This document shows, piece by piece, positions 2,011 through 51,060 of a stretch of 64,000 nucleotides of DNA (the stretch's first letter is position 1; each line of letters starts with the position of its first letter). Source of the DNA: Dehalococcoidia bacterium (GTDB lineage Bacteria; Chloroflexota; Dehalococcoidia; SM23-28-2; HRBIN24); the NCBI GenBank assembly GCA_032249735.1, contig JAVVHA010000012.1, positions 6,346-70,345 on the forward strand, in the 5' to 3' direction. A program made the translations under genes and the position numbers. A model generated the notes under the pieces. That model saw only the letters and a list, made by a program, of their open reading frames with translations, ran no database searches and had not been told where the DNA came from.

Positions 2011-2013
2011 GCC

Positions 2014-5122: not shown

Positions 5123-5132
5123 GGGGCAGGAC

Positions 5133-5885: not shown

Positions 5886-5928
5886 GGCTTCTCCCCTCTG
5901 CCTTCTTCCTCTATCATCAAGTGGGGGC

Positions 5929-8117: not shown

Positions 8118-8374
8118 TGCCTAGGTTCCTAGCCCGCGTCTACATCACCCTCAAGCCAGGGGTGAACGACCCCCAAGGGCTCACCATACGCCACGCCCTT
8201 CACCAGCTTGGGTACACCGCCGTGGCCTCTGTGCGGGCCGGCAAGTATCTGGAGATCTGGATGGAGGCGGCTGACCATCAGGAGGCCACCAAACAGGTGG
8301 AGGAGATGTGCCACCGCCTCCTGGCCAACCCCGTCATCGAGACCTTTCGCCTCCAAGTGGAGGAGACCTCATAG
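8114..8374 (+). CDS. purS: FGAM synthase PurS subunit
   Basis: 86 aa, with ARVYITLKPGVNDPQG. The ATGA overlaps purC. Confidence 0.9.
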   Translation: MMPRFLARVYITLKPGVNDPQGLTIRHALHQLGYTAVASVRAGKYLEIWMEAADHQEATKQVEEMCHRLLANPVIETFRLQVEETS

Positions 8375-9070
8375 CGCCTCCTTGAAGAGGCGCAACACGC
8401 GGGTCCAGGCGTCCTGGGCGGCGCGGGGGTTGTAGACGTCGGGACGGGTGTCGTTGAAGAAGGCGTGCTGGGTCCCGGGGTATACGTGGATCTCGAACTG
8501 CTTGCCGTACCTCTCTAGGGCAGCCCTCAGCTCCTCCGCCCGCCGCGCCGGCTCCACCCACGGGTCGTTCTCGGCGTAGATGGCCAAGACAGGCCCCCTT
8601 ATGTTCTGCACCCGGTCGATGGGCTCGGGGTTGACACCGTAGAAGGGGGCCACAGCGCGGATATGGGGGCTCTCGCAAGCCAGCTCCAGGGCCAGCCCAC
8701 CCCCCATGCAGAAGCCGATGGCCCCAATGCCCCGGCCCTGAATATAAGGCTGAGAGGCCAAGAAGGCGGCGGCGGCCACCAGCTCCCTTACCGCCTTCCT
8801 CATGTCCAGGGAGGTCATGAGGCGCTCCGCCTCCCCAGGGTCGGCGGTCACCCGGCCGTGGTAGAGGTCCGGGGCCAGGGCGGCGAACCCCTCAGAAGCG
8901 AAACGGCGACATACATCTTTGATGTGCTCATCCAGGCCCCACCACTCCTGCACGACGATGACGCCCGGCAGGGGGCCAGGGCCCTCCGGACGCGCCAGAA
9001 AGCCCGTGGCTCTCTCCCCATCGACAGGGAAGCTGACCATCTCCGTCACCACCTGAGTCATAGGCTCCAC
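8369..9070 (-). CDS. Dienelactone hydrolase family protein (carboxymethylenebutenolidase-like)
   Basis: An alpha/beta hydrolase with VIVVQEWWGLDEHIKD and GFCMGG (nucleophile elbow). Confidence 0.85.
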   Translation of the reverse strand: MEPMTQVVTEMVSFPVDGERATGFLARPEGPGPLPGVIVVQEWWGLDEHIKDVCRRFASEGFAALAPDLYHGRVTADPGEAERLMTSLDMRKAVRELVAAAAFLASQPYIQGRGIGAIGFCMGGGLALELACESPHIRAVAPFYGVNPEPIDRVQNIRGPVLAIYAENDPWVEPARRAEELRAALERYGKQFEIHVYPGTQHAFFNDTRPDVYNPRAAQDAWTRVLRLFKEAL

Positions 9071-9076
9071 CTCCTT

Positions 9077-9667
9077 TCACAGGGTTCCTTTGGTAGTGGG
9101 TATCTCGCCTCCTAAGCGGGGTTCGGGACGGGTGGCCTGACGCAGCGCCAGGGCCAGGGCCTTGAAGATGGCCTCGGCACGATGATGGTCGTTCTCGCCC
9201 GAGAGGAGGCGCGCGTGTAAGTTGAGACGTCCGCCCTGGGCCAGGGCCTGCAGGAGGTGACCTATGAGCTCCGTGGGCAAGGAGCCCAACATATCCCTCC
9301 TGAAGGCGGCCTCCACGTGAGCCCAAGGCCTCCCTCCCAGGTCCACCGCCACCAGGGCTAGGGCATCGTCCATGGGGACCAACGCATGTCCGAAGCGGAC
9401 GATACCCCGCCTCTCCCCCAGAGCCTCATCGAGAGCGTGGCCCAAGGCCAGCCCCACGTCTTCCACCAGGTGATGCGCCTCCCGCTCTAGGTCGCCGCTC
9501 GCCTCCACGACCAAATCAAATAGCGCGTGGCGGGCCAGCTGCTCCAGCAGATGGTCCAGCATGCCGATGCCCGTGCGCACCTGATAACGCCCCTGCCCGT
9601 CCAGGTCCACCTCCACCGCCACCTGCGTCTCTGAGGTCTGGCGCTGGTAGCGACCGCGCCTCTCCAT
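9077..9667 (-). CDS. hisB: Imidazoleglycerol-phosphate dehydratase
   Basis: RQTSETQVAVEVDLDG, IGMLDHLLEQLARH, and the HHLVEDVG motifs. The ATG at 9667 has a GGAG RBS. The ORF-track start at 9814 is upstream read-through inside the hisC 3' end. Confidence 0.9.
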   Translation of the reverse strand: MERRGRYQRQTSETQVAVEVDLDGQGRYQVRTGIGMLDHLLEQLARHALFDLVVEASGDLEREAHHLVEDVGLALGHALDEALGERRGIVRFGHALVPMDDALALVAVDLGGRPWAHVEAAFRRDMLGSLPTELIGHLLQALAQGGRLNLHARLLSGENDHHRAEAIFKALALALRQATRPEPRLGGEIPTTKGTL

Positions 9668-9678
9668 TCCACCACTCC

Positions 9679-10782
9679 TTAACTCAGGCGCTGAACAGCA
9701 GCCAGCAGCCTTTCGGTGTCCATGGGGCGGCCGGCGGAGATGCGCAGGTGGTGACGCAACGAAGGATGCGCGTAGCAGCGTACCAGCACCCCCGTACGTC
9801 GCAACTCCTGCCACACCTCCCGCGCATCCCTCCCCATCACCCGACAGAGGAGGAAGTTGGCCTGGGAAGGGTACACTTCTAGCCAGGGGATGGAGGAGAG
9901 GCCTTGGGCCATCCTCTCCCTCTCGGCCACGATGGCCCTTATGCGCTCCTGTAGCACCCCCAAGTCCTCCAAGGAAGCAAGGGCGGCTACCTGGGCGGCT
10001 ACATTGACGTTATATGGCATCTTGGCCTTCAGCACAAGGGCGGCCATCTCCTTGGCCATGATGCCGTAGCCGATGCGCAGCCCGGCCAGGCCGGCCCATT
10101 TGCTAAAGGTACGCAGCACCACCAGGTTCTCCCTCTCCACGGCCAAGGGGTAGAAGGTGTGGCGGCGGCCTGGCCACTCCTGCTCGGCGAACTCCACATA
10201 GGCCTCGTCCACCACTACCAGGGCGCCGGTGGCCAGCAAGGCCTCCAGCTCTTCCCTCTGCACCAGGTTGCCCGTGGGGTTGTTAGGGGAGGCCAAGAAG
10301 CATACCGCCTCCGCCCCACGAAGAGCGCGGGCCATGGCTTCCACATCTAGGGAGAAGTCAGGGCGACGGGCCACCTCCACCACCTCCCCGCCATACAGAC
10401 GGGCCAAGAACCCGTACATGCCAAAGGTAGGCTGGGCCACCACCACCCGCCGCCCCGGCCCCACCCACAGCCGGCAGATGACGTCTAAGAGGTCATCGGA
10501 CCCCGCGCCACAGACGATGTGCCCTTCGTCCACCCCCAGGCCATGGGCCAAGGCCCGCCTCAGCTCCCGCTGCCAAGGGTCGGGGTAAAGGTGGGCCGTG
10601 GACAGGCCAATTAGGGCTGCCATGGCCTTAGGGGATGGGCCGTACGGGTTCTCGTTGCCGTCCAGTTTGGCCAGCATGTCTGGGGCAATGCCCAGCTCCC
10701 TGGCCACCACCTCTGGAGGGTCGATGGGCTCGTATCCCTCCATCTCGGCGATGTAAGGGCGGGCCAAGGGGAAGGAGGCCAT
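9679..10782 (-). CDS. hisC: Histidinol-phosphate aminotransferase
   Basis: A class II aminotransferase with LDGNENPYGPSP and a PLP-Lys region (FSKWAGLAGLRIGY). Confidence 0.9.
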   Translation of the reverse strand: MASFPLARPYIAEMEGYEPIDPPEVVARELGIAPDMLAKLDGNENPYGPSPKAMAALIGLSTAHLYPDPWQRELRRALAHGLGVDEGHIVCGAGSDDLLDVICRLWVGPGRRVVVAQPTFGMYGFLARLYGGEVVEVARRPDFSLDVEAMARALRGAEAVCFLASPNNPTGNLVQREELEALLATGALVVVDEAYVEFAEQEWPGRRHTFYPLAVERENLVVLRTFSKWAGLAGLRIGYGIMAKEMAALVLKAKMPYNVNVAAQVAALASLEDLGVLQERIRAIVAERERMAQGLSSIPWLEVYPSQANFLLCRVMGRDAREVWQELRRTGVLVRCYAHPSLRHHLRISAGRPMDTERLLAAVQRLS

Positions 10783-10783
10783 C

Positions 10784-12112
10784 TCAAGCCTTCCTCACCC
10801 TGCGGGCCTCCACGGCCGCGGCATGGCCCGTGAGGCCCTCGGCCCTGGCGATGGCCGCAGCCAGGGGGGCCAGCTCCCCCGCCTCCTCCCGCGTTATGTC
10901 GACATATGTGATGACCTTCAGAAAGTCCCAGACCCCCAAGGGAGAGGAGAAGCGAGCGCTGCCCCCGGTGGGCAGGACGTGGCTGGGCCCTACCACATAG
11001 TCGCCCAGGGACTCAGCAGCCGCCGGCCCGAGGAAAACACATCCCACGTTCCGCACCAGGGGTAGGAGGGCTCGTGGCTCCCGCACATGCAGGCAGAGGT
11101 GCTCCGGGGCCAGGGCGTTGGCCAACTCCATAGCCTCCCGCAGATCCGACAGCGCCACCATGGCCCCCCTGGCAGCCAGGGCCCGCTGGGCCACCTCCCG
11201 GCGGGCCAGACGCGGCAGGCCCCATTCCAGATGCTTTTGCACCGCATCCAGCAGCCCCTCCTGGGTGACTATGAGGACCACCGTGGCCAGCTCGTCGTGC
11301 TCGGCGCCGGCCAGCATGTCGACGGCCAACAGGGCGGGGTCAGCCCCATCATCGGCCACTATCACCGTCTCCGAGGGCCCGAAGATGCCATCGATGCCCA
11401 CTTGGCCGAAGAGGAGCCGCTTGGCAGTGGCCACGAAGATGTTGCCAGGGCCACAGATCTTGTCCACCGGTGGTACGGTGGCGGTGCCATAGGCCAGGGC
11501 GGCGATGCCCTGCACGCCACCGGCGCGGAAGACGCGGGACACCCCAGCTAGGCGGGCCGCCACCAGCTTCTCGGGCGCCACTCGCCCGTCGGGGCGGGCG
11601 GGGGTGGCCATCACCACCTCCCCCACCCCGGCCACGCGGGCGGGGATGGCCGTCATGAGCACAGTAGACGGATAGGAGACGACGCTGCCCGGCACATAGA
11701 TGCCCACCCTCTCCAACGGCCGCACCACCTGGCCTGCTCCATCGCCTTGGAAAGCCCGCTGGGCGTTCTCCAACTGGCGACGGTGGAAGGCCTCCACCCG
11801 ACGCGCCGCCTCCTGCAAGGCCTCCCGCAGAGGGATGGGCACTTCCTCCCACGCCCGGAGGATCTCCTCCTCCGTCACTACCAGAGGGGCATCGAGGGGT
11901 AGGCCGTCCAACAGGTGGTTATAGCGGGCCACGGCCTCGTCGCCTTGGGCCCGCACATCGGCCAGGATATATGCCACCACCTCCTGCACCGATAGGTCTG
12001 CCCCGAAGACCTCCCGCACTTTCTCCCGCACGTGGGGAGGCAGCTCCTCCTCGGGCGGAGGACGGCCCAGGAGCCAACGACGCGCTTCCTCCAGTCCTTT
12101 GAGCACTAGCAC
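10784..12112 (-). CDS. hisD: Histidinol dehydrogenase
   Basis: ICGPGNIFVATAKR, GPSETVIVADDGADPA, and AEHDELA, at full length. Confidence 0.95.
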   Translation of the reverse strand: MLVLKGLEEARRWLLGRPPPEEELPPHVREKVREVFGADLSVQEVVAYILADVRAQGDEAVARYNHLLDGLPLDAPLVVTEEEILRAWEEVPIPLREALQEAARRVEAFHRRQLENAQRAFQGDGAGQVVRPLERVGIYVPGSVVSYPSTVLMTAIPARVAGVGEVVMATPARPDGRVAPEKLVAARLAGVSRVFRAGGVQGIAALAYGTATVPPVDKICGPGNIFVATAKRLLFGQVGIDGIFGPSETVIVADDGADPALLAVDMLAGAEHDELATVVLIVTQEGLLDAVQKHLEWGLPRLARREVAQRALAARGAMVALSDLREAMELANALAPEHLCLHVREPRALLPLVRNVGCVFLGPAAAESLGDYVVGPSHVLPTGGSARFSSPLGVWDFLKVITYVDITREEAGELAPLAAAIARAEGLTGHAAAVEARRVRKA

Positions 12113-12858
12113 AGGTAAGCCCTCACTGCCTCCATCCCTTTCTCCACCGATGTCTCCAGGAAGAAGCGTATGCGTTCAGGGGTGAGATAGCGCACCGCCT
12201 CCTCCACCAGTTGGGGCAGGGTCTTGACGAACTGGGCGAAGGCCTCGGGTGTCTCGATGCCCGCCTCCTCCAGATAGCGACTGGCGATGAAGCGAAAACG
12301 TTCCCATTCCGGCGGCCTGCTGGCTACCCGCAGGGTGATCTCCCGCCAGCGGGACATGGTCTCGGCGTCCACAAAACCCAGGTCGATGCCCATGTCTGCC
12401 CGGGCCAGCTCTGATACGATATGGGCTACCAGCTCTGGGTCCCGCCTCCCCTCCCGGTCCATAGAGAACTGGACGGCCCGGTCTAGGATGTTGGCCCAGC
12501 AGTCGCCGCCTAGGGGCGAGCGCTCGCCGAAAAAGGGCCTGTATATCTGAGTTATCCATATCTCGTCCATGACCAAGTGAGTTATATAGCCAGCTACAAA
12601 GGCTGCCATATGAGGCGGGATGGCGTGGGCGTCCGCCAGATGGGGCTGGGCGCGCAAGAACTCGGCCACCCCGTCCTGATGGCCGAAGTTGGTCAGATCG
12701 AAGAAATGGGTCACCTTCCGGTCCCACCGAGTGAGGACCCGTATATCGGGGGTAGTGGAGCCCAGGTAGAGGGCACCGCGGTGACCATCCAGAATGGGAT
12801 GTCGCAGCCTATCACCTATCTCCTTGGCCACTACTGTGTGCAGGCCCAGGGGAGGCAC
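12106..12858 (-). CDS. Uncharacterised metal-dependent hydrolase-like protein (resembles the Zn-dependent PLC / S1-P1 nuclease superfamily)
   Basis: 250 aa with no signal peptide. The N-terminus GLHTVVAKEIGDRL is like the GxHxxVA start of P1/PLC-type enzymes, with several His/Asp pairs (ITHLVMDE). It overlaps the hisD start by 7 nt and sits inside the his operon. Confidence 0.5.
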   Translation of the reverse strand: MPPLGLHTVVAKEIGDRLRHPILDGHRGALYLGSTTPDIRVLTRWDRKVTHFFDLTNFGHQDGVAEFLRAQPHLADAHAIPPHMAAFVAGYITHLVMDEIWITQIYRPFFGERSPLGGDCWANILDRAVQFSMDREGRRDPELVAHIVSELARADMGIDLGFVDAETMSRWREITLRVASRPPEWERFRFIASRYLEEAGIETPEAFAQFVKTLPQLVEEAVRYLTPERIRFFLETSVEKGMEAVRAYLC

Positions 12859-12872
12859 CCTATCACCTCACG

Positions 12873-14279
12873 TTAGATTGTAGCAGAGCCTGCCACGGCC
12901 ACCGGCCGCAGCGAGTCCAGGAGCAAGCGCAAAAGCTCGCCGCGCCTCCCTGTGGGGGTGTGCCGCCCCACCACCACACAGGTGGTGGAGCGGAAGAGCA
13001 CGTCGATGGCCTTCAAACGGTTCTCGGCTAGGGTGCGGCCTGTCTCCGTCCCCTCGATGAGGAGATCGGCGTCCTCCGGCACAAACCCCTCTGAGGCACC
13101 CGCCGTGGGTATGACCCTGTACCGCCAGAGATGGCGACTCCGGGCATAATGGTCAGCGATGGCCACGAACTCGGAAGCGATGCGCACCAGTGGCCGCCCC
13201 TCCCGACGCCAAAAGGATATGGCTTCCTCCATGGTCTCCACTGGCAAGTCCACGCTCACTACAGCGCTCATGTTAAAGGCCCCTTTGCCCAGGTCCAGGG
13301 CCACGGCCACCGGGCTGGACGGGAACCGATAGATATGCTCAAGGAAGCAGTCGCGCCCAGTGAAGGCCAGATCGAAGGCACCCAGGGCCACCATCTGGGG
13401 CATATCCTGCGGGCGGATGACCTTGGCCTCGATGCCGTCCCATGGCCCAAGGGGTCTCCTTTCCCCCTCAGCATACCCGGGGAAAGAGAGCCCCGCCTCG
13501 GCTAGGGCCCCCAGGACATGAGGCTTTTGGTGGCCATCGGGGAGGGCCACCCGCAACACCTCCCGCTCCCGAGCAGGGGGACGCGGCCTCAGACCTAGCC
13601 CTCCCAGGGAAGCCGGTAACCTCATCCCTGGCACGGACGAAAGCCCCAAAGAGGCCAGGGCCGACAGCACCCAGCCCATGTCCAAGGCCTTGATCGCCTG
13701 ACGATGGGCGATGACCACAGGCGGCCCCTCCAGCACAGCTAGCAGGGGCACAAGCCCCCTCTTGACTACCTCTTCCTCGTGGCTGGCCAAGGCCAGGGCC
13801 AGGTCGGCGTCCTCAGGTGGGTAGGCCTCGGCGCTCCCCCAGACGGGGATGATGCGGTATCGGGGCAAGCGCAGGGCCAAGGCCAAGGCCTCCGCCAGAT
13901 GGGGGAACTCGGTGACGATGCGGGGCTCTGCCAAGCGGGAGAGGTCCGCCAGCGTCTGGGCCGTTGAGGGGGCGGCCATCAGAAAGAGGGTGGGGCCCGC
14001 CAAGGGAAGGGACCCCAGCTTCACCACCCCCTGCCGAGGGTTGCGGGCCAAGAACTCTTCCACCCACGCCGCCCCGCAGATACCCACATGGTACTGCCCT
14101 AAAGCGATCTGGACGGGTATATCCCGCTCTCGAAAGACCCTCACCCGGGCCCGCCCGTCCAGGGACAGACGATATGACCGCGAGCCTTCGCCGTAGCCAG
14201 GTACATCCAGGCCCACCTGGGACAGGAGCTGGGAGATGGGACGGCGCAGCTCCCCCGCTGGCAAGGCTATCTTTATCAC
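12873..14279 (-). CDS. hisG: ATP phosphoribosyltransferase, short-form type with an internal tandem duplication (two HisG catalytic-type repeats)
   Basis: Residues 1-215 and 250-468 are clear repeats (IKIALPAG/LRVALPDG; LLSQVGLDVPGY/ALAEAGLSFPGY; VFRERDIPVQIALG/VIRPQDMPQMVALG). The second repeat keeps the HisG motifs (AFDLAFTGRDCFLE). The first is degenerate. Confidence 0.85.
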   Translation of the reverse strand: MIKIALPAGELRRPISQLLSQVGLDVPGYGEGSRSYRLSLDGRARVRVFRERDIPVQIALGQYHVGICGAAWVEEFLARNPRQGVVKLGSLPLAGPTLFLMAAPSTAQTLADLSRLAEPRIVTEFPHLAEALALALRLPRYRIIPVWGSAEAYPPEDADLALALASHEEEVVKRGLVPLLAVLEGPPVVIAHRQAIKALDMGWVLSALASLGLSSVPGMRLPASLGGLGLRPRPPAREREVLRVALPDGHQKPHVLGALAEAGLSFPGYAEGERRPLGPWDGIEAKVIRPQDMPQMVALGAFDLAFTGRDCFLEHIYRFPSSPVAVALDLGKGAFNMSAVVSVDLPVETMEEAISFWRREGRPLVRIASEFVAIADHYARSRHLWRYRVIPTAGASEGFVPEDADLLIEGTETGRTLAENRLKAIDVLFRSTTCVVVGRHTPTGRRGELLRLLLDSLRPVAVAGSATI

Positions 14280-15505
14280 TTCTCGGCGCCTCCCGACAAA
14301 ACGGTCAAGGCCTCATCCACGCTCCCCACCTGCTGACCGGCCGACGCCCCAGCGCCAAAGGCCACCATGCCCTGGGGTCCCACCAGCAGACGGGGCCCTC
14401 CCCAAGAGACGCCGCGGGCCAGGGCCACCTGGGCAGGCAAACCTCTCTCCCGTAGGGCGGAGGCGGCTTGAAAGGCCGCAGCTACGGTAGTTGCTGCCCC
14501 ATCGGCCGGTTCCACCCAAACCGTGGCTGCTGCCACAGGAGGCCTGGTGACCAACGGCAGAAGGCGCCCCATGTACAGGGCGAAGCCGGAGGCGGGGACC
14601 TGGCGGCCACACAGCACCTCCACCAGGGCGTCGTAGCGACCGCCTCCCCCCACCACCACATCCCCCACCAAGAGCTGGAACACGGGGCCCGTATAGTACT
14701 CGAAATTGCGGACCATGGCCCCCGTCACCGTCGGCACCAGGCCCAGAGCCTCCAGGGTCTCAGCCAAGGCCTCCAGCTCGTCTAGGGGACGGGCGACCTC
14801 CGGTAAGGCCTGGGCGAAGGCTGCCCGCAGGTTGCGCACGTAGTTGGCCCCTTGCCCCTCCTCCCTCAGCAAGAGGTCCACCGCGGGCCCCAAGTCAGGG
14901 ATGCGACCTCGCAGTTGGGCCAGGGCCTCCTGCTCCCCGTCCAGTATGGCGTCGTATAGACGGAGCTGCTCCCCGGCGCTGAGGCCTGTCCTTTCCAGGA
15001 CCGCCCGCACAAGGCCCGGATGGGAGAGGCGCACCCCCAGGGCGCCCAGCCCCAGCCGGGCTAGCACCTCCCGGCCCAGAAGCACCAGCTCCACGTCCCC
15101 CAGGGGCTGCGTATCGCCCAGCAGCTCCACCCCACACTGCCACTCCTCCCTCTCCCCCTCCGTGAAGCGGAAGACGTTCTGTACGTAGAAGAGCTTGGCC
15201 AGCGGCGCTCCCATCATATGCTCGATGTAAAGACGGGCCACGGGTATGGTGCTATCGGGGCGCAGTACAACCCTCTCCCCGCTCCAGCCGTCCCAGTCCA
15301 GGAAGGAGTAGACTCGGCCCAACATCTGGGCGGAGAGGGTGCCGGCGGCGGTGAACAGAAAGAGGTGTTCAATGGTGGGGGTCCGCACCTCCTGGTAACC
15401 CCACTCACGACAGGTGAGGCGAAACACCTCCTCTACTTGCCGGAAGCGCTCCATCTCCTCCGGCAAGAGGTCGTGCATGCCTGGGCAGCGCAACGGCTCT
15501 TCCAT
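14276..15505 (-). CDS. hisZ: ATP phosphoribosyltransferase regulatory subunit (HisRS paralogue)
   Basis: Class II aaRS-like core (PGMHDLLPEEMERF, TPTIEHLFLF). The start is set at Met23 (15505) to leave about 90 nt for the divergent promoter region. The ORF track extends to 15571. Confidence 0.8.
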   Translation of the reverse strand: MEEPLRCPGMHDLLPEEMERFRQVEEVFRLTCREWGYQEVRTPTIEHLFLFTAAGTLSAQMLGRVYSFLDWDGWSGERVVLRPDSTIPVARLYIEHMMGAPLAKLFYVQNVFRFTEGEREEWQCGVELLGDTQPLGDVELVLLGREVLARLGLGALGVRLSHPGLVRAVLERTGLSAGEQLRLYDAILDGEQEALAQLRGRIPDLGPAVDLLLREEGQGANYVRNLRAAFAQALPEVARPLDELEALAETLEALGLVPTVTGAMVRNFEYYTGPVFQLLVGDVVVGGGGRYDALVEVLCGRQVPASGFALYMGRLLPLVTRPPVAAATVWVEPADGAATTVAAAFQAASALRERGLPAQVALARGVSWGGPRLLVGPQGMVAFGAGASAGQQVGSVDEALTVLSGGAEK

Positions 15506-15597
15506 AGGGCTGCAGACGAGGGACAAGAACATTCTAATGCCCTCGCCCATTAGGGGCAAAAGGGAGGCCATATAATGGAGGCTGAGGCCATCTCTTC

Positions 15598-20033: not shown

Positions 20034-20054
20034 GTCCCAAGGCCTCCAAGTGGG

Positions 20055-20440
20055 GGGGCAGTGGGCCTATAAGCCGGGTTCTGTAGTCGCCCCCTAAGGG
20101 GCGACCGGTGGTCATCAATCTGGGCCTCCCCTTACGGAGAGGCTCAAGCGGCCTACCCGAGGGCATCGGGCCGGGCATCCCTAGGCCCCAAAAGGGGCTC
20201 GCCCTCCTATTTGGCCTTGCTCCGCGTGGGGTTTGGCCAGCCGGCAGGTCGCCCTGCCGCTGGTGGGCTCTTACCCCACCTTTTCACCCTTACCGCCGGA
20301 ATCCCGGCGGCGGTATGGTTTCTGTGCCACTTTCCGCGGGTCGCCCCGCCTGGGCGTTACCCAGCACGCTGCCCGGTGGAGCCCGGACTTTCCTCCCCCC
20401 GCTCACAGGCGGGGGGCGACCACCCGGCCCACTGTGCCCC
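20055..20440 (-). ncRNA. rnpB: RNase P RNA, bacterial type A
   Basis: Reverse complement contains GGAGGAAAGUCCGGGCUCC (P4 5' strand), AGGGUGAAAAGGUGGGGUAAGAGCCCACC, GUGGCACAGAAACCAUACC, and ACAGAACCCGGCUUAUAGG (P4 3' strand). P1 pairs CAGUGGGCC with GGCCCACUG, for a length of about 386 nt. An extended -10 TGTAAAAT at 20455-20462. Confidence 0.9.
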
Positions 20441-43497: not shown

Positions 43498-44448
43498 TTA
43501 CCACCATACCTTCCCCTCCACCTCCTCCGGCTGCAGGGCCTCCTGCCCTTTGGTCCAGAGGCCGGTGGAGAGGTACTTCCAGCCGCCGTCAGCGAACAAG
43601 CAGACGATATTGCCCCGTTGCAGCCTCTCCGCCACCCGCAGGGCGGTGCGCAGGACGGCACCGGAGGAGATGCCGGCAAATATCCCCTCCCGGTCCATCA
43701 GCTCCTTGGTCATGGCAAAGGAAGTGCGGGAGTCCACCACGATGCGTCCGTCCAGCACCGACTCGTCCAACACTGGCGGGATAAACCCTTCCTCCAGGCT
43801 GCGCAGCCCCTGCACGAGGTCGCCAGGATGGGGCACGGTGGCGATGACCTTCACCTTAGGGTTGTGCTCCTTGAGCCGCCGCCCCACACCCGTGAGGGTG
43901 CCGCCGGTCCCCAGCCCCGCCACAAACACGTCCACCTCCGGCAGGTCGCGGATGATCTCCACGGCGGTGGTCTCGTAATGGGCGCGGGGGTTGTTGGGGT
44001 TGCCGTATTGGTAGGGCATGTAGTAGCGCTGGGGGTCCTCCTCCACCATGCGCTGGGCAAGGGCGATGGCGTCGTTGGTGGAGCGGGCCCCCCGGGCATA
44101 CACCACCTCGGCGCCGAAGGAGCGGATGAGCTGTTCCCTCTCAGGGGTCACGTTATCGGGCAGGACGCACACCACCCGATAGCCCTTGACGCGGCCCACC
44201 ATGGCCAGGCTTATGCCCGTATTGCCACTGGTGGGCTCCAGAATGATCTTCTCCGGCGTCAGCGCGCCCGACTCCTCGGCAGCCCGGATCATGTAGAGAG
44301 CGATGCGGTCCTTAAGGCTGCCGCTGGGGTTCTGCCCCTCCAACTTGGCGAAGATGCGCACCCCAGGCTTGGGCTGGAACCGCCGCAGCTCCACCAGGGG
44401 AGTGTTACCGATGCACTCCAAGATGTTGGCATAGACCCTCCCCCCCAT
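43498..44448 (-). CDS. cysM: Cysteine synthase B-type PLP enzyme (CysM-like sulfhydrylase)
   Basis: IGNTPLVEL, SGSLKDR (PLP Lys), and TSGNTGISLA. The ATG at 44448 is preferred. The longer ORF-track start at 44496 would overlap the CysO-like stop. Confidence 0.85.
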   Translation of the reverse strand: MGGRVYANILECIGNTPLVELRRFQPKPGVRIFAKLEGQNPSGSLKDRIALYMIRAAEESGALTPEKIILEPTSGNTGISLAMVGRVKGYRVVCVLPDNVTPEREQLIRSFGAEVVYARGARSTNDAIALAQRMVEEDPQRYYMPYQYGNPNNPRAHYETTAVEIIRDLPEVDVFVAGLGTGGTLTGVGRRLKEHNPKVKVIATVPHPGDLVQGLRSLEEGFIPPVLDESVLDGRIVVDSRTSFAMTKELMDREGIFAGISSGAVLRTALRVAERLQRGNIVCLFADGGWKYLSTGLWTKGQEALQPEEVEGKVWW

Positions 44449-44482
44449 GGCCCGCCTCTTCCCGCTTACGGGCTGCGGCCTC

Positions 44483-44767
44483 TTAACCCCCAACATCTCC
44501 TCCTGCCAGGGCAGGGAGGATGGAGATCACGTCCCCATCCTGCACCGGCGTGTCCAGCTGCTGGAGAAAACGCACGTCTTCATCATTGAGATAGATGTTC
44601 ACGAACCGGTGCAGGCGGCCATTGTCCAAGACGCTGGCCTTGATGCCGGGGAACATCTCGTCCAGGCGGTCCAAGACCTCGCCGATGGTGGCTCCCTCCA
44701 CCTGCACGGAGCGCCTTCCCCCGGCCAGCCTTTGCAGGTTCGCCGTGAGCCTCACCTCTATCGCCAT
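44483..44767 (-). CDS. CysO/MoaD/ThiS-type sulfur-carrier protein with a C-terminal GG followed by a 4-residue extension (…ILPALAGG-DVGG)
   Basis: 94 aa. A beta-grasp pattern like M. tuberculosis CysO (RLAGG..., FVNIYLNDEDVRFLQ, ILPALAGG). The ATG at 44767 has a GGGG RBS. Confidence 0.8.
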   Translation of the reverse strand: MAIEVRLTANLQRLAGGRRSVQVEGATIGEVLDRLDEMFPGIKASVLDNGRLHRFVNIYLNDEDVRFLQQLDTPVQDGDVISILPALAGGDVGG

Positions 44768-44814
44768 TGCCAGCCCCTTTCCATTATATTGCGCAGTCCT
44801 TTCTGCGCATATCT

Positions 44815-45903
44815 TCACTCGTGCCTCCCTGGGAAGGGGGCACCGCAAAAGCCTTCGTAATCGATGAGCTGAGTGATGGTGGGCTCATCGCCACACAGGG
44901 GGCATGCGGGATCCCGCCGCAGCTTGACTACCCGGAACTCGCCCGCCAGGGCATCGTAGAGGAGGAGGCGCCCCACCATGGGCTCGCCGATGCCCAGGAT
45001 GAGCTTTATGGTCTCCACCGCCTGTAGGGAGCCGATGACACCTGTGAGGGCGCCCAGGACGCCCGCCTCAGCACAGCTGGGCACCGCCCCTGGCGGGGGA
45101 GGTGAGGGGAAGAGGCAACGGTAGCAGCCCCGGCCGGGCATGAACACCGTCATCTGGGCGTCGAACATGAGGATGGAGGCGTCCACCAGGGGCTTGCCGG
45201 CGAAGTAACAGGCATCGTTGACCAGGTAGCGGGTGGTGAAGTTGTCGGCCCCGTTCACCACCACGTCATACTGGGGGATGATGTCCATGGCGTTGTCGGA
45301 GGTGAGGGGGCCATCGTGGATGACCACGTTGACGTCCGGATTGTAGGAGAGGATGGTCTCCCTGGCCGACTCCGTCTTGGGGCGCCCTACGTCGTCGTTC
45401 TGATGGAGGATCTGGCGCTGGAGGTTGGAGAGGTCCACCACATCGAAGTCCACGATGCCGATGGTGCCCACGCCGGCCAGGGCCAAGTAGAGGGCGGCGG
45501 GGGAGCCCAGGCCTCCCGCTCCTACCACCAGCACCTTAGCCGCCAGGAGCTTGCGCTGGCCCACCGGGCCCACCTGGGGCATGATGATGTGGCGCGAGTA
45601 GCGCAGCACCTGCTCTGGGGTCAGCACCTGGCCACCGGCGATGGCCGGGATGATGGCCACCTCGTCGCCGTCCTGCACCGGTGTCTCCGGCCCCTGCAGG
45701 GTGTGGATCTCTTGATTGTTGAGGTAGACGTTGATGTGGGCGGGGATATGCCGCTGCTGGTCGAAGATCATGTTGGCCAGGGCGGGGAAGTGACGTGCCA
45801 GGTCCTCTAGGATCTCCCGCACCGTCCTGCCTTGGGCCTGCACATAGACCTGGTTGCCCGTAAGCCTTCGGAAGGGCGTCGGTATGTAGACGGTCACGCT
45901 CAC
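44815..45903 (-). CDS. E1-like adenylyltransferase (MoeB/ThiF/MoeZ family) with an N-terminal fused CysO-like beta-grasp domain; no rhodanese domain
   Basis: The N-terminal 91 aa (VTVYIPTPFRRLTGNQ...VAIIPAIAGG) are a CysO paralogue, followed directly by the E1 Rossmann fold (VLVVGAGGLGSPAALYLALAGVG, crossover-loop Cys in SCAEAGVLG) and a C-terminal CPLCG Zn motif. A GTG start with an AGGAGGAGG RBS. Confidence 0.85.
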   Translation of the reverse strand: MSVTVYIPTPFRRLTGNQVYVQAQGRTVREILEDLARHFPALANMIFDQQRHIPAHINVYLNNQEIHTLQGPETPVQDGDEVAIIPAIAGGQVLTPEQVLRYSRHIIMPQVGPVGQRKLLAAKVLVVGAGGLGSPAALYLALAGVGTIGIVDFDVVDLSNLQRQILHQNDDVGRPKTESARETILSYNPDVNVVIHDGPLTSDNAMDIIPQYDVVVNGADNFTTRYLVNDACYFAGKPLVDASILMFDAQMTVFMPGRGCYRCLFPSPPPPGAVPSCAEAGVLGALTGVIGSLQAVETIKLILGIGEPMVGRLLLYDALAGEFRVVKLRRDPACPLCGDEPTITQLIDYEGFCGAPFPGRHE

Positions 45904-45918
45904 GCTTTTCCTCCTCCT

Positions 45919-46839
45919 TTACTCCAAGAAGCTGTAACGCTCGCCGGTGTCCGGCAGGATGGTCACCACCCGCTTGCCCCGGCCCATCCGCTTGGCCACT
46001 TTGATGGCTGCCACCACATTGGCCCCCGATGATATGCCCACCAGGAGCCCCTCCTCACGGGCCAGACGGCGGGCCATGGCCATGGCCTCTTCGTCCCCCA
46101 CGCCGATGACCTCGTCGATGATGCGCCGGTTGAGGACGCCAGGGACGAAGCTGGCGCCTATGCCCTGGATGGCATGGGGGCCTGGTCTGCCCCCTTGCAA
46201 GACGGGCGAGCGGGAGGGCTCCACTGCCACCACCAAGATGTTGGGGTTGTGCTGCTTTAGGACCTCGCCAACGCCGGTGATGGTGCCGCCCGTGCCCACC
46301 CCAGCCACGAAGGCGTCCAGCCGCCCCTCCGTGGCCTCCAAGATCTCCTGGGCGGTGGTGCGACGGTGGATCTCGGGGTTGGCGGGGTTCTCGAACTGCT
46401 GGGGCATGAAGTAGTCGGGGTTGTTGCGCACCAGCTCCTCAGCGGCGTAGACCGCCCCCGTCATCCCCTCTAGGGCCGGGGTGAGGACCACCTCCGCCCC
46501 GAATCGGGCCAGGAGGTCGCGACGGGCCAGGCTCATGTCTTCGGGCATGGTGACGATGAGGCGGTACCCCTTCACAGCCGCCACCATGGCCAGGCCGATG
46601 CCCGTGTTACCGCTGGTGGGTTCCACGATGGTAGCCCCTGGCTTGAGGATGCCCCGTCGCTCGGCGTCCTCGATCATGGAGAGGGCGATGCGATCCTTGA
46701 CGGAGCCAGCGGGGTTGAGGGACTCCAGCTTAGCCACGATCTCTGCCGCCCCATTGGGCACCACGCGGTTGAGGCGCACCATGGGCGTGTCGCCTATAAG
46801 GTCGAGGACGCTGTCCACGATCCTAGCGCGCCTGGCCAT
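45919..46839 (-). CDS. cysK: Cysteine synthase A (O-acetylserine sulfhydrylase)
   Basis: [26 protein letters not shown], and [10 protein letters not shown]. Confidence 0.9.
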
Positions 46840-46847
46840 GCTCGCCC

Positions 46848-47291
46848 CTAGATAACGTACCTATCGGCCCGCACCGCCCGCTGCCGGTCCTTGGCGGCCA
46901 GCTCGGCTATGGTCACCCGGTCCAGCACTTGCATAATGGCTCGCTGGACCTCCTCCCACATCTCCCGCTGGGCACAGCCGCCGGCGCGGCTGCACTCGGA
47001 GGCCTCCTCCAGACACTCCACCGGTATGAGCTCTCCCTCGAGGGCCCTTATGACGTCGCTCACCCTTATCTCGTTGGGGTGGCGGGCCAGGGCATGCCCC
47101 CCCTGCGGGCCCCGCACGCTGCGCACCAGCCCAGCCCGCCGCAGCATGGCCAAAAGCTGCTCCAGATAAGACTCAGGGATGTTCTGGCGAGCGGCGATCT
47201 CAGCGCTCTGGGTGAGCCGTCCTTCCCCATACCGGTGGGCCAGCTCGATGAGGGCGCGGATGCCGTAGTCCCCCTTGCTCGATATGCGCAT
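46848..47291 (-). CDS. Rrf2-family transcriptional regulator (CymR/IscR-like)
   Basis: [18 protein letters not shown], wHTH, and C-terminal Cys residues (CSRAGGC). The ATG is at 47291. Confidence 0.85.
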
Positions 47292-47363
47292 GCATCCCAC
47301 CAAGAAAGTGGAGTGGTTTCATCAACAATACTAGCATGGGCCATGTGTGGGGGCAAGGGGCCG

Positions 47364-47627
47364 CTAAGGCGCCGGGCGGGTGGGTGGCAGACCTAGGCGA
47401 GCGGCCAGCTCCCCGTTGGTGGGCTCCACTAGATAGTCTCCTTCGGGGAACACCACCACCGGTATGATGAAGCGGCCCCCATTGACCTGAAGGACGTACT
47501 GCCTGGCCTCCTGGTCGGCCTCCACGTCCAGCCAGCGGAAGGGTACGCCCCAGTCGGTGAGGAACTGCTTGGCGCGACGGCAGTCGGGGCACCAGTTGGC
47601 CCCATAGACGTATACGATGCCAGTCAC
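47364..47627 (-). CDS. Glutaredoxin-like small redox protein (CPDC motif)
   Basis: [20 protein letters not shown], a thioredoxin-fold N-terminus. The GTG start overlaps the upstream stop (GTGA). Confidence 0.7.
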
Positions 47628-47905
47628 GCCCCGCCTCCCGCCACAGCGGGCACGATGCTTACCTCATCACCTGGCTTGAGGACGGTATCCAGACCTTGGA
47701 GGAAGCGCACGTCCTCGCCGTTGACGTATACGTTGACGAAGCGGCGCAACTGGCCCGCCTCGTCCACAAGCCGCTCCTTGAGGCCCGGGAACCGGGCCTC
47801 AAGGGCCTCGATGCAGTCCTTGAGGCGGGAGCCCTCGGCGGTCACCACCTCCTGGCCACCGGTGAGGCGGCGCAAGGGGGCTGGGATGCGTACCTTCACG
47901 CTCAT
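47624..47905 (-). CDS. CysO/MoaD/ThiS-type sulfur-carrier protein, C-terminus …[10 protein letters not shown]
   Basis: [31 protein letters not shown], and IVPAVAGG closely mirror M. tuberculosis CysO. Two extra residues follow the Gly-Gly. Confidence 0.85.
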
Positions 47906-47917
47906 GTTCGCGGCACC

Positions 47918-48160
47918 TCAACCCTCCATGATGTCACCGGGCACGGGGTCCACCCTCACCCCCTGCTCCTCCACCCACCTTATCCCACGCTCGATCTCCT
48001 CCATATCCCCCTCCAGCTCGAGGACGACCCATCCCTGGGTCTCGGTGACGTCGGCGCGGCGGATGTTGGTTACCACGTTGAAGTTCTTACCCAGGCGCCA
48101 AATGATGGGCTCCTGCACTAGCTGAGGGGGGAAGGTGAATTTGACCCGCTGTTTGGCCAC
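47918..48160 (-). CDS. Stand-alone NIL-domain protein (MetN C-terminal-like substrate-binding domain)
   Basis: An 80-aa beta-alpha-beta-beta-alpha-beta pattern (VKFTFPPQLVQEPIIWRLGKNFNVVTNIRRADVTETQGWVVLELEGDMEEIERGIRWVEEQGVRVD). The GTG at 48160 lies 11 nt after the thrC-like stop. The ORF-track TTG at 48223 would overlap upstream. Confidence 0.6.
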   Translation of the reverse strand: MAKQRVKFTFPPQLVQEPIIWRLGKNFNVVTNIRRADVTETQGWVVLELEGDMEEIERGIRWVEEQGVRVDPVPGDIMEG

Positions 48161-48170
48161 GTTACCACCC

Positions 48171-49421
48171 CTACCCTTTGCTGGCCATGAGGGCTTCCTG
48201 ACGACGGGCCATAGCCTCCTCAAAGGAGGCGATGGTGGGCATTACCACCACGGGCTCAGGCAGGACGCCCTCTACGGCCTCCCGCGTCTTAAGGCCGGCC
48301 CCTGTGATGAATGCTACCACCGTCTCGTCCGGGGCGAAAGAGCCTGCCTGGGCCAGACGCTTGAGGGCAGCCACCACCACCCCCCCAGCCGTCTCAGCGA
48401 ATATCCCTTCTGTCTCGGCCAGGAGCCGCATCCCCTCCACGATCTCATCGTCGGACACGGCCACCCCATAGCCACCGCTCTCGTTGAGGACGCGCAGGGC
48501 GTAATAGCCGTCGGCGGGGTTGCCAATGGCCAACGATTTGGCGATGGTGTTGGGGCGCTGGGGTCGGATATCGTAGCTCTTGCGCTCCCAGGCCTCCACC
48601 ACCGGTGAGCAGCCCAAGGCCTGAGCGGCCGTCATGCGCGGTGGCCGCCACTCCACCAGGCCCAGCCAGGCCAGCTCCTTCATGCCCTTGTAGATCTTGG
48701 TGAACAGGGAGCCGCTGGCCACCGGCACCACGCAGTGATGGGGGATGCGCCAGCCCAGCTGCTCGCACACCTCGTAGCCCAGGGTCTTGGAGCCTTCAGC
48801 GTAATAGGGGCGGACGTTGATGTTAACGAAGGCCCATGGGTACCTCTCGGCCAGCTCGCTGCACAGGCGGTTGACATCATCATAGGACCCCTTCACGGCC
48901 ACCAGGGTGGGGCCATAGATGGCCGAGCCCACCACCTTGCCCACCTCCAGGTCGGCGGGGATGAAGACTAGAGCCCGCAGCCCAGCGCGGGCGGCATGAG
49001 CGGCTACGGAGTTAGCCAGGTTGCCAGTGGAGGCACAGGCCAAGGTATCGAAGCCGAACTCCCGGGCCTTGGTGGCCGCCACCGATACCACCCGGTCTTT
49101 GAAGGACCAGGTGGGGTTTACGCAATCGTTCTTAATATAGAGGTGGCGCAGCCCCAGGGCCTTGCCCAGACGGGGAGCAGGCAACAGAGGGGTGAAGCCA
49201 GCGCCGATGTCCACCGGCTCCCCTTCCACCGGCAATAGTTCGCGATAGCGCCAGATGGTGTAAGGCCCCCCCTCGATGCGGCGACGAGATATGTGCCTGC
49301 GTAGGGCCTCGTAATCGTAAGTCACTTCCAGGGGTCCGAAGCAGAACTCGCACACATATATGGGCTCCAGCGGGTACAGGCGCCCACACTCGCGACACCT
49401 CAGACTTTTGGCGAAGGACAT
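48171..49421 (-). CDS. Threonine-synthase-family PLP enzyme with an N-terminal Zn-ribbon (candidate homocysteine-forming MetM-like enzyme)
   Basis: CRECG...CEFC ribbon, SFKDR (PLP Lys), and ASTGNLANSVAAHAARAG. The ATG at 49421 has a GGAGGG RBS and lies 20 nt downstream of the riboswitch terminator. Confidence 0.85.
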   Translation of the reverse strand: MSFAKSLRCRECGRLYPLEPIYVCEFCFGPLEVTYDYEALRRHISRRRIEGGPYTIWRYRELLPVEGEPVDIGAGFTPLLPAPRLGKALGLRHLYIKNDCVNPTWSFKDRVVSVAATKAREFGFDTLACASTGNLANSVAAHAARAGLRALVFIPADLEVGKVVGSAIYGPTLVAVKGSYDDVNRLCSELAERYPWAFVNINVRPYYAEGSKTLGYEVCEQLGWRIPHHCVVPVASGSLFTKIYKGMKELAWLGLVEWRPPRMTAAQALGCSPVVEAWERKSYDIRPQRPNTIAKSLAIGNPADGYYALRVLNESGGYGVAVSDDEIVEGMRLLAETEGIFAETAGGVVVAALKRLAQAGSFAPDETVVAFITGAGLKTREAVEGVLPEPVVVMPTIASFEEAMARRQEALMASKG

Positions 49422-49442
49422 GCCCAGCCCTCCTGCTCTCCC

Positions 49443-49476
49443 AAAATACAACTTATGCGGCCCCCCCCGGGGCCGC
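49443..49476 (-). terminator. Intrinsic terminator forming the riboswitch expression platform
   Basis: Minus-strand GCGGCCCC-GGGG-GGGGCCGC hairpin followed by AUAAGUUGUAUUUUGG. Confidence 0.6.
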
Positions 49477-49571
49477 CTCGCCTTCGGTCCCCCGCCACAT
49501 CCCGCGCGCCGGCGCCCATTGCAATAAAGGAGGCCCCTTCCACTAGAGGGAAGAGGCCATATCCAGGCCAG

Positions 49572-49716
49572 CTCCCCCTTATCGTCCCCCACCTCAAGGC
49601 GGGGACGGCGTTGGCACCGCTGCACGGGCTCGGCTCAGGACCTGAAGCCCTGGCCTGACCCCGGCCGGTTGCCGGGCTTCACAGGGCCGTTCCCTCCACC
49701 TCTCTGGATAAGAGGG
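49572..49716 (-). promoter_or_regulatory. SAM-I (S-box) riboswitch aptamer
   Basis: Minus-strand CUCUUAUCCAGAGAGGUGGAGGGAACGGCCCUGUGAAGCCCGGCAACC...GGUGCCAACGCCGUCC...GAUAAGGGGGAG matches the S-box consensus (UCUUAUCnAGAG.GGnGGAGGGAnnGGCCC.AUGAAnCCCnGCAACC...GGUGCnAA...GAUAAG), with P1 closed by CUCUUAUC/GAUAAGGG. Confidence 0.85.
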
Positions 49717-49743
49717 GCCGTATTCGGTTGTCAGGGCTTTATC

Positions 49744-51060
49744 CTAGCATGCCCCCCACTGTGTGTCAACGGGCCGCGGGGCCCCCTCGCGCCCCCTTGG
49801 CAGAACTACCACGAAGGTGGCACCCCGCCCCAGCTGGCTCTCTGCCCAGATGCGGCCGCCGTGGGCCTCCACTATGGCCTTAGCGATGGCCAGCCCCAGC
49901 CCCGCCCCTCCATCCTCATCGCGGCGGCGGGCGCGGTCGGCCCGATAGAAGCGGTCGAAGATGCGGGGCAGGTCCTGGGGGTCGATGCCCACCCCTGTAT
50001 CGGCCACCTCCAGACGGGCCCTATCGCCATCGGCGGCGGCCCTCACCTCCACCCTGCCTCCCGCGGGGGTGAATTTGATGGCGTTGTCCAACAGGATGAA
50101 CAGAAGCTCCCGCAGGCGGGTGGCATCGCCCCACAGGGGGACGGCGCCCGGGGCCACCACCTCTCCTTGCAGGCCCTTCTCCTGAAGGCGGGGCGAGAGC
50201 TGACGCACGGCGTCCCGAGCCAACTGGGCCAAGTCCACCTCCTCCCTGTGCAGGGGAAGACGGCCAGCGTCGGCCCGAGCCAGGGTCAGCAGCTGGGACA
50301 CGAGGCGGGCCAGTCGCTCGCTCTCGCCGATGATATCCTCCACCTCCTGCCGGTGAGCCGAGATAGGCTCCTCGGGGTGACGTTGGAGGATCTCGGCGCT
50401 GGCCCTGATGAGGGAGAGGGGGGTCCGGAGTTCATGGGAGGCATCGGCCATGAAGGTCCGCTGGCGCTCCATAGCCTCTTTGATGGGACGGAGGGCCCGC
50501 CCGGCCAAGAAATAGCCCCCGCCTACCGACAGGAGGATGGCACCTACCCCTCCTGCCAGCAGAATCACCAGGAGGTTGTGCAGGGCAGATAGCTCAGGCT
50601 CGAGGCTCCGTCCCACCAGTAGCACCAGCCCAGGGCCCATCCCCACGGGCCGCAGATAGATACGCACCTCCTCCCCATCGTGCGACTGGACGGTCAGGAG
50701 CTTGGGCCCCCTTGCTAACACCTCCTGCGTATCCTGGGACGGGGGGAGAATGGTGGGGTCCAAGTTGCGGCTGGCGGCCAGGAGCTGCCCATGGGGCCCT
50801 AACAGGGCATACATATATGCGTAGGACCCCTCCTCTGGCCCCACCTGAACATCCCCTATGGCCTGCTGCCTCTCCAGGAGGCGTAGACGGGCATTGAGGA
50901 GGGGCAGCTCCCGTTCCGCCCGCGTGCGCAGCTCGTCGTCCACGTTCCCCAGCACCATGTGACGGACCGTGAGGTACACGGCTAGGCCCAATAGGGTCAG
51001 GGCCACCGCCAGGACTGCCGCAAACCAAAGGGCGAGGCGCCAGCGAGCGGACGCGAACAC
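49744..51060 (-). CDS. Two-component sensor histidine kinase (TM, HAMP, HisKA, HATPase)
   Basis: Two TM helices, ASHELRTPLSLI (H-box), and N, G1 and G2 boxes. Confidence 0.9.
   Translation of the reverse strand: MFASARWRLALWFAAVLAVALTLLGLAVYLTVRHMVLGNVDDELRTRAERELPLLNARLRLLERQQAIGDVQVGPEEGSYAYMYALLGPHGQLLAASRNLDPTILPPSQDTQEVLARGPKLLTVQSHDGEEVRIYLRPVGMGPGLVLLVGRSLEPELSALHNLLVILLAGGVGAILLSVGGGYFLAGRALRPIKEAMERQRTFMADASHELRTPLSLIRASAEILQRHPEEPISAHRQEVEDIIGESERLARLVSQLLTLARADAGRLPLHREEVDLAQLARDAVRQLSPRLQEKGLQGEVVAPGAVPLWGDATRLRELLFILLDNAIKFTPAGGRVEVRAAADGDRARLEVADTGVGIDPQDLPRIFDRFYRADRARRRDEDGGAGLGLAIAKAIVEAHGGRIWAESQLGRGATFVVVLPRGREGAPRPVDTQWGAC

Follow-up and report, generated by a model that had tools for sequence, protein, structure and literature searches.

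The window analysed here is a stretch of 64,000 nucleotides from a Dehalococcoidia bacterium (Chloroflexota; NCBI GenBank assembly GCA_032249735.1, contig JAVVHA010000012.1, positions 6,346 to 70,345 of the forward strand). Its minus strand carries a compact gene cluster behind an S-adenosylmethionine (SAM) riboswitch, comprising a threonine synthase (ThrC) homologue that resembles the homocysteine-forming enzyme MetM, a small NIL-domain protein, a sulfur carrier resembling MetO, and a glutaredoxin-like protein (Grx). In transcriptional order, the features are as follows:

49741-49769, minus strand: promoter-like site, TTGACA, 17 nt and TAGGAT, with TG before the -10 hexamer (consensus scan, pattern match alone)
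49576-49714, minus strand: SAM-I (S-box) riboswitch aptamer (Rfam RF00162, 74.1 bits)
49522-49558, minus strand: expression platform, an intrinsic-terminator-like hairpin with a U-rich tail (terminator scan and ViennaRNA folds)
48171-49421, minus strand: MetM-like pyridoxal 5'-phosphate (PLP) enzyme, ThrC homologue with an N-terminal four-cysteine ribbon, 416 aa (Pfam PALP, 251.7 bits)
47918-48160, minus strand: stand-alone NIL-domain protein, 80 aa (PF09383, 58.4 bits; gathering score 24)
47624-47905, minus strand: MetO-like ThiS/MoaD beta-grasp carrier, 93 aa (PF02597, 79.7 bits; NCBIfam SAMP1 NF041918, 75.7 bits, cut-off 60)
47364-47627, minus strand: glutaredoxin/mycoredoxin-like protein with a CPDC motif, 87 aa (PF00462, 51.4 bits; TIGR02200, 72.1 bits, below its cut-off of 89.5)

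An initial annotation of the locus had described four tightly packed minus-strand genes of these types preceded by a SAM-I aptamer and a terminator, and both parts of that description held, with Pfam matches to all four products. The intergenic gaps, given there as 11-12 nt, were measured at 10 nt between the enzyme and NIL genes and 12 nt between the NIL and carrier genes; the overlap of the carrier stop with the Grx start as GTGA was confirmed. The nearest protein relatives, at 98% identity, were in assemblies of Dehalococcoidia-class Chloroflexota.

An Rfam scan of the whole window returned two matches, the SAM-I riboswitch and a bacterial RNase P RNA. At 74.1 bits (E = 1.7e-15), the SAM-I match exceeded the gathering score of 44.4, and it covered the covariance model from end to end (positions 1-108 of 108); its P3 loop carries an insert of 40 nt. 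The promoter-like site lies 27 nt upstream of the aptamer and agrees with the consensus at 10 of 12 positions; one such site was found, compared to 0.4 expected from shuffles. The terminator-like hairpin (49558-49532), 18 bases downstream of the aptamer, has a 10-pair stem with seven G-C pairs followed by TCCTTTATTG, and folded alone it had an energy of -18.4 kcal/mol in ViennaRNA. An alternative helix, in which 49579-49572 pairs with the 5' arm of the terminator, reached -21.3 kcal/mol, and the minimum-energy fold of the whole leader contained this helix, not the terminator hairpin. The overlap between the alternative helix and the 3' strand of P1 is short, amounting to four bases (49579-49576) and two flanking pairs. 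With that short overlap, the arrangement of aptamer, terminator and antiterminator is consistent with the usual layout of an S-box off-switch, as which the leader would function.

We compared the enzyme with relatives at least 57% identical to it from 83 distinct loci (L001-L084 minus the duplicate L003) of Chloroflexota, Cyanobacteria, Actinomycetota, Nitrospirota, Nitrospinota, Aquificaceae, Kiritimatiellae, Methylomirabilota and Syntrophaceae. The window protein is a fold-type II PLP enzyme of the ThrC family: its K108, in an SFKDR motif, aligns with Thermus K61, the Schiff-base lysine. It shares 37.6-43.6% identity with solved threonine synthases. Within the carrier-linked clade any two members are at least 51% identical, and the highest identity between a member and a threonine synthase is 43.6%. 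The comparison with ThrC that the initial annotation had proposed thus set the enzyme outside the solved threonine synthases, and neither of the two results that it had named as refuting was obtained, the aptamer having scored well above the SAM-I threshold.

The separation extends to individual residues. At 20 alignment positions, one state was found in the 83 clade members and another in five threonine synthases, namely three solved enzymes and two paralogues encoded in loci L031 and L019. Thermus T88, N157, R160 and N188 correspond to L135, R204, Y207 and S236 in the window enzyme; these four residues recur in all 83 clade members, and T, N, R and N are kept in all five threonine synthases. 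The clade signature reads KVVLRYSASGKKSDG, compared to KGMTNRQGNAATASW in threonine synthases. We take Thermus T88, R160 and N188 to be ligands of the substrate phosphate, which a threonine synthase presumably keeps as catalytic base; loss of their counterparts would fit a gamma-replacement enzyme. The L/V-R-Y signature could be followed through a set of 54 more distant representatives down to approximately 42% identity, where it ended.

The two paralogues show that MetM-like and ThrC proteins can be neighbours. In Thermodesulfovibrio (L031), a thrC paralogue (1959-3101) directly follows the genes for MetM, ThiS and NIL, and in a Chloroflexi metagenome-assembled genome (L019) one (2564-3694) lies 1.5 kb upstream of the MetM gene. 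Both are 60-64% identical to Aquifex or Thermus ThrC and 38-40% identical to the local MetM-like protein, so that both functions are present in a single genome. Among the long ThrC-like representatives there were no ThrC-NIL fusions. Some distant representatives (38-40% identity) carry other C-terminal domains, i.e., a PadR-type DNA-binding domain in P0305, P0354, P0384 and P0386, and a LeuA allosteric (dimerisation) domain in P0326 and P0335.

Gene context links the enzyme to a carrier. A ThiS-type carrier gene adjoins the enzyme gene in 76 of the 83 loci, spanning at least eight phyla. The SAM-I core was found just upstream of the enzyme gene in 20 of the 83 loci, namely in 12 of 32 from Chloroflexota, all seven from Actinomycetota and one from Kiritimatiellae, and it had no further occurrence in these loci. 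These counts were made with a core-motif pattern that agreed with Rfam at all 12 loci tested; a covariance model of our own was dropped, the MAFFT alignment of five aptamers being unusable in the variable P3 region.

All seven Actinomycetota loci, and likewise Nonomuraea gerenzanensis (L085), follow the order SAM-I, MetM and a ThiS gene ending in AGG. In Nonomuraea, a SAM-I aptamer (68.7 bits in Rfam) directly precedes the enzyme gene, which is followed by a 91-aa carrier ending in AGG, with no NIL gene; this is the published MetM/MetO architecture. The S-box-linked Nonomuraea enzyme is 52.8% identical to the window enzyme, and the 15-residue signature is common to both, as judged by eye from the translation. 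No Streptomyces protein was among the relatives from the genome scan, all at least 57% identical, and a search seeded with the Nonomuraea protein returned Streptosporangiales only. Only 14 nt separate the end of the aptamer in Nonomuraea (5825-5980) from the probable start codon of MetM, which suggests that SAM-I control in actinomycetes may be translational, unlike the terminator-type platform of the window. The Nonomuraea record is listed in PLSDB as an 11.85-Mb 'plasmid I' and is probably a chromosome.

The carrier in the window ends in ...VPAVAGGGA, that is, in the AGG of its family followed by two extra residues (AGG-GA), and not in a free GG as initially annotated. C-terminal trimming would thus be needed. 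Carriers of its relatives end in AGG, AGG-I, AGG-N or AGG-RGI.

The NIL gene is found in 27 of the 83 MetM loci. It stands between the enzyme and carrier genes in 22 of the 32 Chloroflexota loci and directly after the carrier in four others (L031, L051, L073 and L078), from Thermodesulfovibrio, Manganitrophaceae, Methylomirabilota and one unclassified source. It adjoins the MetM gene even at two loci with no adjacent carrier gene (L018 and L023), and was absent from all 33 cyanobacterial and all seven actinobacterial MetM loci. A metagenome scan seeded with NIL proteins gave 80 loci, and in each of the 64 with enough upstream sequence MetM was encoded directly upstream of NIL; the matches were at least 64% identical to the window protein, so that they sample mainly one subfamily. 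Within Chloroflexota, NIL presence bore no relation to the riboswitch, SAM-I being found in seven of 22 NIL-positive and five of 10 NIL-negative loci. We also looked for MetM alignment columns that track the presence of NIL and rejected the outcome as confounded by phylogeny, the NIL-negative loci being mostly cyanobacterial. In L122 (805-1497), and also in L140 and L148, all of them metagenomic loci, the NIL and carrier genes are separated by one that encodes a Pyridox_ox_2 protein of 230 aa (PNPOx-like, of an FMN-binding family; 151.8 bits).

The NIL protein has a fixed length of 80 aa, and 37 of its 80 columns are invariant among 36 homologues. Because it has neither a cysteine nor a conserved C-terminal Gly-Gly, it is not a sulfur carrier. 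Its AlphaFold (AF2) model had a predicted local distance difference test score of 89.2, and the top 11 PDB matches were NIL domains of the MetN type; the model superposed on the MetN C2 domain with TM-scores of 0.79-0.84 and root-mean-square deviations of 1.1-2.2 A, and ACT domains came lower in the list. In MetN, a hydrogen bond from N295 holds L-methionine across the C2 dimer, and binding is lost on N295A substitution (PMC6233128). N32 and A36 of the NIL protein align in sequence with E. coli MetN N295 and A299, and N32, I33, R34 and A36 do not vary among the mini-proteins of different phyla. The conserved core of the NIL protein hence coincides with the ligand and dimer strand (NIxxA) of the MetN C2 domain. 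These patterns suggest, at lower confidence than the assignment of the enzyme, that MetM of Chloroflexota and a few further phyla has a conserved accessory partner in NIL.

At one locus, from Syntrophaceae (L077), the NIL sequence lies in the same reading frame as the carrier (7279-7803; AGG-SF-LKRRVMLTFPP...). We rejected this apparent ThiS-NIL fusion as strong evidence: with one T fewer in its TTTTT run, the frame ends as AGGSF and stop, and a separate NIL gene preceded by a ribosome-binding site follows. It is either a real fusion that would need cutting by a JAB protease or an assembly (homopolymer) error.

With the enzyme set apart from threonine synthases, the 20 clade-specific positions and a SAM-I score well above threshold, a thiocarboxylate-dependent homocysteine synthase is the best reading of this locus. 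It is quite probable, judging from homology and gene context, that the operon is repressed by SAM and makes homocysteine from O-phosphohomoserine by the MetM/MetO route, with a protein thiocarboxylate as sulfur donor. The initial annotation had arrived at the same kind of synthase, a proposal that the analysis supports well. At high SAM, the aptamer would close P1 and the downstream hairpin would stop transcription ahead of the first gene, and at low SAM the polymerase would read through into the operon. A ThiF-type E1 encoded 1.7 kb downstream would adenylate the carrier, leading to a C-terminal thiocarboxylate; for this, the two extra residues of the carrier would have to be removed, for which a JAMM protease with its gene at another place in the genome is the most likely candidate. 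The ThrC-like PLP enzyme would then eliminate phosphate from O-phosphohomoserine and add the thiocarboxylate sulfur at C-gamma, after which homocysteine would be released from the carrier. Our best guess for NIL is a small ACT-like subunit that would bind methionine or a close relative (homocysteine) and damp MetM, in parallel to the same domain in the MetN transporter and to IlvN for IlvB.

Several observations weigh against this reading. The enzyme scored above the cut-offs of NCBIfam threonine-synthase models (PRK08197, 317.1 against 303; TIGR00260, 288.5 against 167.1). A Microcystis member of the clade is reported to act as a threonine synthase and threonine deaminase in vitro, and not to raise methionine in vivo (PMC12172450). 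Given the Microcystis activities and the NCBIfam scores, function may not be uniform across the clade. Orthology to MetM of Streptomyces albulus rests on the actinomycete proxy and on identities quoted by others, among them 51.6% between MetM and the Microcystis protein, according to its authors, compared to 33% reported for B. subtilis ThrC. No JAMM/Mec (JAB) or rhodanese gene was among the open reading frames scanned in the 64-kb window. For NIL, contact with MetM and methionine binding are conjectures, and the sole apparent ThiS-NIL fusion is one T away from being two genes.

The thrC equivalog scores, the Microcystis activities and the fact that the nearest solved structures are threonine synthases would also suit an ordinary threonine synthase, with SAM control balancing the threonine and methionine branches at O-phosphohomoserine and with the carrier and NIL as mere neighbours. 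We consider this very improbable. If threonine synthesis were repressed at high SAM, more O-phosphohomoserine would be left for methionine, the opposite of what feedback requires. The enzyme moreover shows 20 fixed differences from the solved enzymes, three of them at what we take to be phosphate ligands; genuine thrC paralogues are present in L031 and L019, and the carrier linkage is conserved across phyla. Annotation as threonine synthase is itself a common error for MetM (GapMind 2026 preprint). A different possibility is that the enzyme is a direct O-phosphohomoserine sulfhydrylase acting on free sulfide, the carrier being dispensable, used at low sulfide only or serving another enzyme. 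MetM activity has been mimicked with O-phosphohomoserine and Na2S (PMC12172450), so sulfide may be accepted in vitro; SAM-I and MetM occur with no adjacent carrier gene in L028, L034 and L041, as do MetM and NIL in L018 and L023, and CysK, a sulfide user, is encoded in the same cluster as MetM. Against this, the adjacency of carrier and enzyme genes in so many loci and phyla would be hard to explain if the carrier were irrelevant, and the published system runs on MetO-thiocarboxylate (GapMind 2026 preprint), leaving us to regard direct use of sulfide as unlikely.

Within the thiocarboxylate-dependent route, the role of NIL is the more tentative part. NIL could possibly be a true third component of the MetM/MetO system in Chloroflexota and several phyla rich in anaerobes, an ACT-like sensor of methionine or homocysteine that would switch off MetM or block docking of the carrier. 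As the main alternative, it might be a structural adaptor or chaperone that docks the carrier tail onto MetM or protects the thiocarboxylate. The position of its gene between those of MetM and the carrier or right after the carrier, tightly coupled to both, suits an adaptor, as does the single ThiS-NIL reading frame in L077. Such a role is nevertheless rather doubtful: NIL has no cysteine, its conserved core is the MetN ligand and dimer strand, the L077 fusion may be a homopolymer error, and Cyanobacteria and Actinomycetota have MetM and MetO with no NIL, which means that NIL is not needed for the chemistry.

The glutaredoxin-like gene, which the initial annotation had counted as part of the module, is found in the window and its 98%-identical relatives L088 and L089. 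The less similar relatives L086 and L087 (87% and 81% identity), in which gene order is otherwise the same from MetM to RecG, lack it, and so do the other 83 loci. This distribution rules out Grx as a core component of the operon. We conclude that it is a recent, species-level add-on or passenger and at most an optional helper; at most, and speculatively, it might help to reduce acyl-disulfide intermediates during sulfuration of the carrier. In L002 (7360-7599), L007 (4904-5179) and L017 (5469-5780), the MetM leader is closely preceded by the gene of another kind of glutaredoxin-like protein (DUF836 type, with a CGLC motif). Genes of this type are present in several Chloroflexota loci, and thiol-disulfide oxidoreductase genes therefore recur near MetM, albeit non-orthologous ones.

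Directly downstream of the operon, 43498-47303 on the minus strand holds a complete module of the CysO/CysM type:

46848-47303, minus strand: Rrf2-family (CymR-like) regulator, first gene of the sulfur cluster (PF02082, 149.8 bits; NF047409 CymR, 130.2 bits, below its cut-off of 195)
45919-46839, minus strand: cysteine synthase A, CysK (TIGR01139, 457.1 bits against a cut-off of 350.95)
44815-45903, minus strand: E1-like adenylyltransferase of the ThiF/MoeB type (PF00899, 280.9 bits, and PF02597, 56 bits; MoeB and MoeZ models below their cut-offs)
44483-44767, minus strand: second ThiS/MoaD-type carrier, CysO-like, ending in AGG-DVGG (PF02597, 65.3 bits)
43498-44496, minus strand: CysM-like cysteine synthase, partner of the second carrier (TIGR01136 cysKM, 347.7 bits against a cut-off of 344.15)

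At its N-terminus the E1 bears a ThiS-like domain, inside which there is an AGG; it contains no rhodanese domain. Its gene is kept beside the MetM cluster in L001, L086, L087 and L088, and it is likely to activate both carriers. The start of the second carrier, at 44767, was chosen against the 94-aa gene of L086. Downstream of CysM the window has no JAB/Mec gene, unlike L001 and L010; in L077, a gene of this type lies upstream of CysM.

Upstream of the Rrf2 gene is a conserved element comprising CTTG, approximately 17 nt and TGCTAnnATTGTTGAtGAAA..CTCnACTTT, found in the window at 47304-47350 (minus strand), in L086 at 8880-8940, in L001 at 9955-10010 and in L002 at 15060-15110. It is probably a promoter with an Rrf2/CymR operator and makes it likely that the cysteine module has its own control.

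Beyond this module lie genes for DegV, RecG and ArgS, and a two-component system is encoded upstream of the riboswitch. No other thrC, nor any other thr or met gene, was found among the window's scanned open reading frames. Elsewhere, the window contains a class A RNase P RNA (20054-20435, minus strand; 294 bits against a gathering score of 100) and, at 529-15571, a purine cluster (purF, purM, purH, purB) and a histidine cluster (hisC, hisD, hisG, hisZ-like) with no bearing on the operon.

These findings have consequences for annotation. Thousands of entries annotated as threonine synthase probably fall in the MetM clade, in Chloroflexota, Cyanobacteria, Actinomycetota, Nitrospirota and other phyla, with consequences for how auxotrophy for methionine and threonine is predicted in uncultured lineages. 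The residue signature (STGN-L, RPYY, ASG), together with adjacency to a carrier gene, sets this clade apart from solved threonine synthases. The published MetM/MetO system lacks the NIL mini-protein, a partner that is both closely linked and strongly conserved. With this protein, three methionine-related settings of the NIL domain are now known (the MetN transporter, MA1822 and the MetM operon), of which the operon is a simple soluble system for finding the ligand and role of this domain. If NIL is indeed a sensor, it would add a fast protein-level brake on top of the slower SAM riboswitch, and would provide a first testable function for NIL in homocysteine biosynthesis, including for the unexplained NIL domain of MA1822.

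The closest known system is MetM/MetO of S. albulus. According to the account given in PMC12172450, Hasebe et al. 2024 (Appl Environ Microbiol 90:e01247-24) found that MetM, a ThrC homologue, and MetO, a sulfur carrier, make homocysteine from O-phosphohomoserine in this organism, with a SAM riboswitch upstream of metM. Pathway steps listed in the GapMind 2026 preprint are MetO, Mec, MoeZ and MetM. As far as these accounts describe the system, it has in common with the window a ThrC-type PLP enzyme, an adjacent ThiS/MoaD carrier and an upstream SAM riboswitch; an E1 (MoeZ-like) and a JAMM protease (Mec) serve it as helpers. The core arrangement was thus already known, at variance with the initial annotation, which took the module to be undescribed; the only feature for which the searchable literature gave no description is the conserved partnership of the NIL gene with MetM. 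The window adds the 80-aa NIL gene between enzyme and carrier and the Grx-like gene at the end. It differs in the two-residue C-terminal extension of its carrier and in its E1, which has an N-terminal ThiS domain and no rhodanese. Its host is a member of the Chloroflexota, and its riboswitch is of the terminator type, compared to the aptamer of Nonomuraea that lies close to the start codon. The locus is best described as a phylum-level variant, distinguished by its NIL gene, a carrier needing trimming, an E1 lacking rhodanese and a species-level Grx.

The CysO/CysM/Mec/MoeZ system of Mycobacterium tuberculosis makes cysteine from O-phosphoserine by beta-replacement. Here too, a protein thiocarboxylate serves a fold-type II PLP enzyme acting on an O-phospho amino acid, whereas the window enzyme belongs to the ThrC family and is predicted to carry out gamma-replacement on O-phosphohomoserine. 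A module similar to CysO/CysM (second carrier, CysM-like enzyme, E1) lies directly downstream in the window. The precedents invoked by the initial annotation therefore divide: MetM/MetO explains the operon, and CysO/CysM fits the neighbouring module but not the operon itself. In Wolinella succinogenes, work attributed to Krishnamoorthy and Begley in 2011 and cited in PMC5764234 reportedly identified a HcyS/MetY/HcyD/HcyF system in which homocysteine sulfur comes from a ThiS-like thiocarboxylate and a JAMM protease removes a carrier extension; the PLP enzyme there is said to be an O-acetylhomoserine sulfhydrylase of fold type I, not a ThrC homologue, and to have no NIL partner.

Two further systems share the NIL domain. 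In methanogens and Desulfovibrio, MA1821 (DUF39) and MA1822 (NIL-ferredoxin) form homocysteine from aspartate semialdehyde, so that a NIL domain is again associated with homocysteine formation. That system pairs DUF39 with a NIL domain fused to a 4Fe-4S ferredoxin, whereas NIL in the window stands alone beside a ThrC-like enzyme; it lacks the ferredoxin domain and cysteines, and no DUF39 (COG1900) protein was encoded among the genes from 43.5 to 51.7 kb. Nothing beyond the NIL domain is therefore common to the two, and the initial view of the operon as a hybrid of three routes was not supported. The closer relative is the C2 (NIL) domain of the MetNI methionine importer, which belongs to the same Pfam family and shares the fold and the NIxxA strand including the methionine-binding asparagine; there, the domain is the tail of an ABC ATPase, whereas in the window it is a free-standing protein of 80 aa encoded in a biosynthetic operon.

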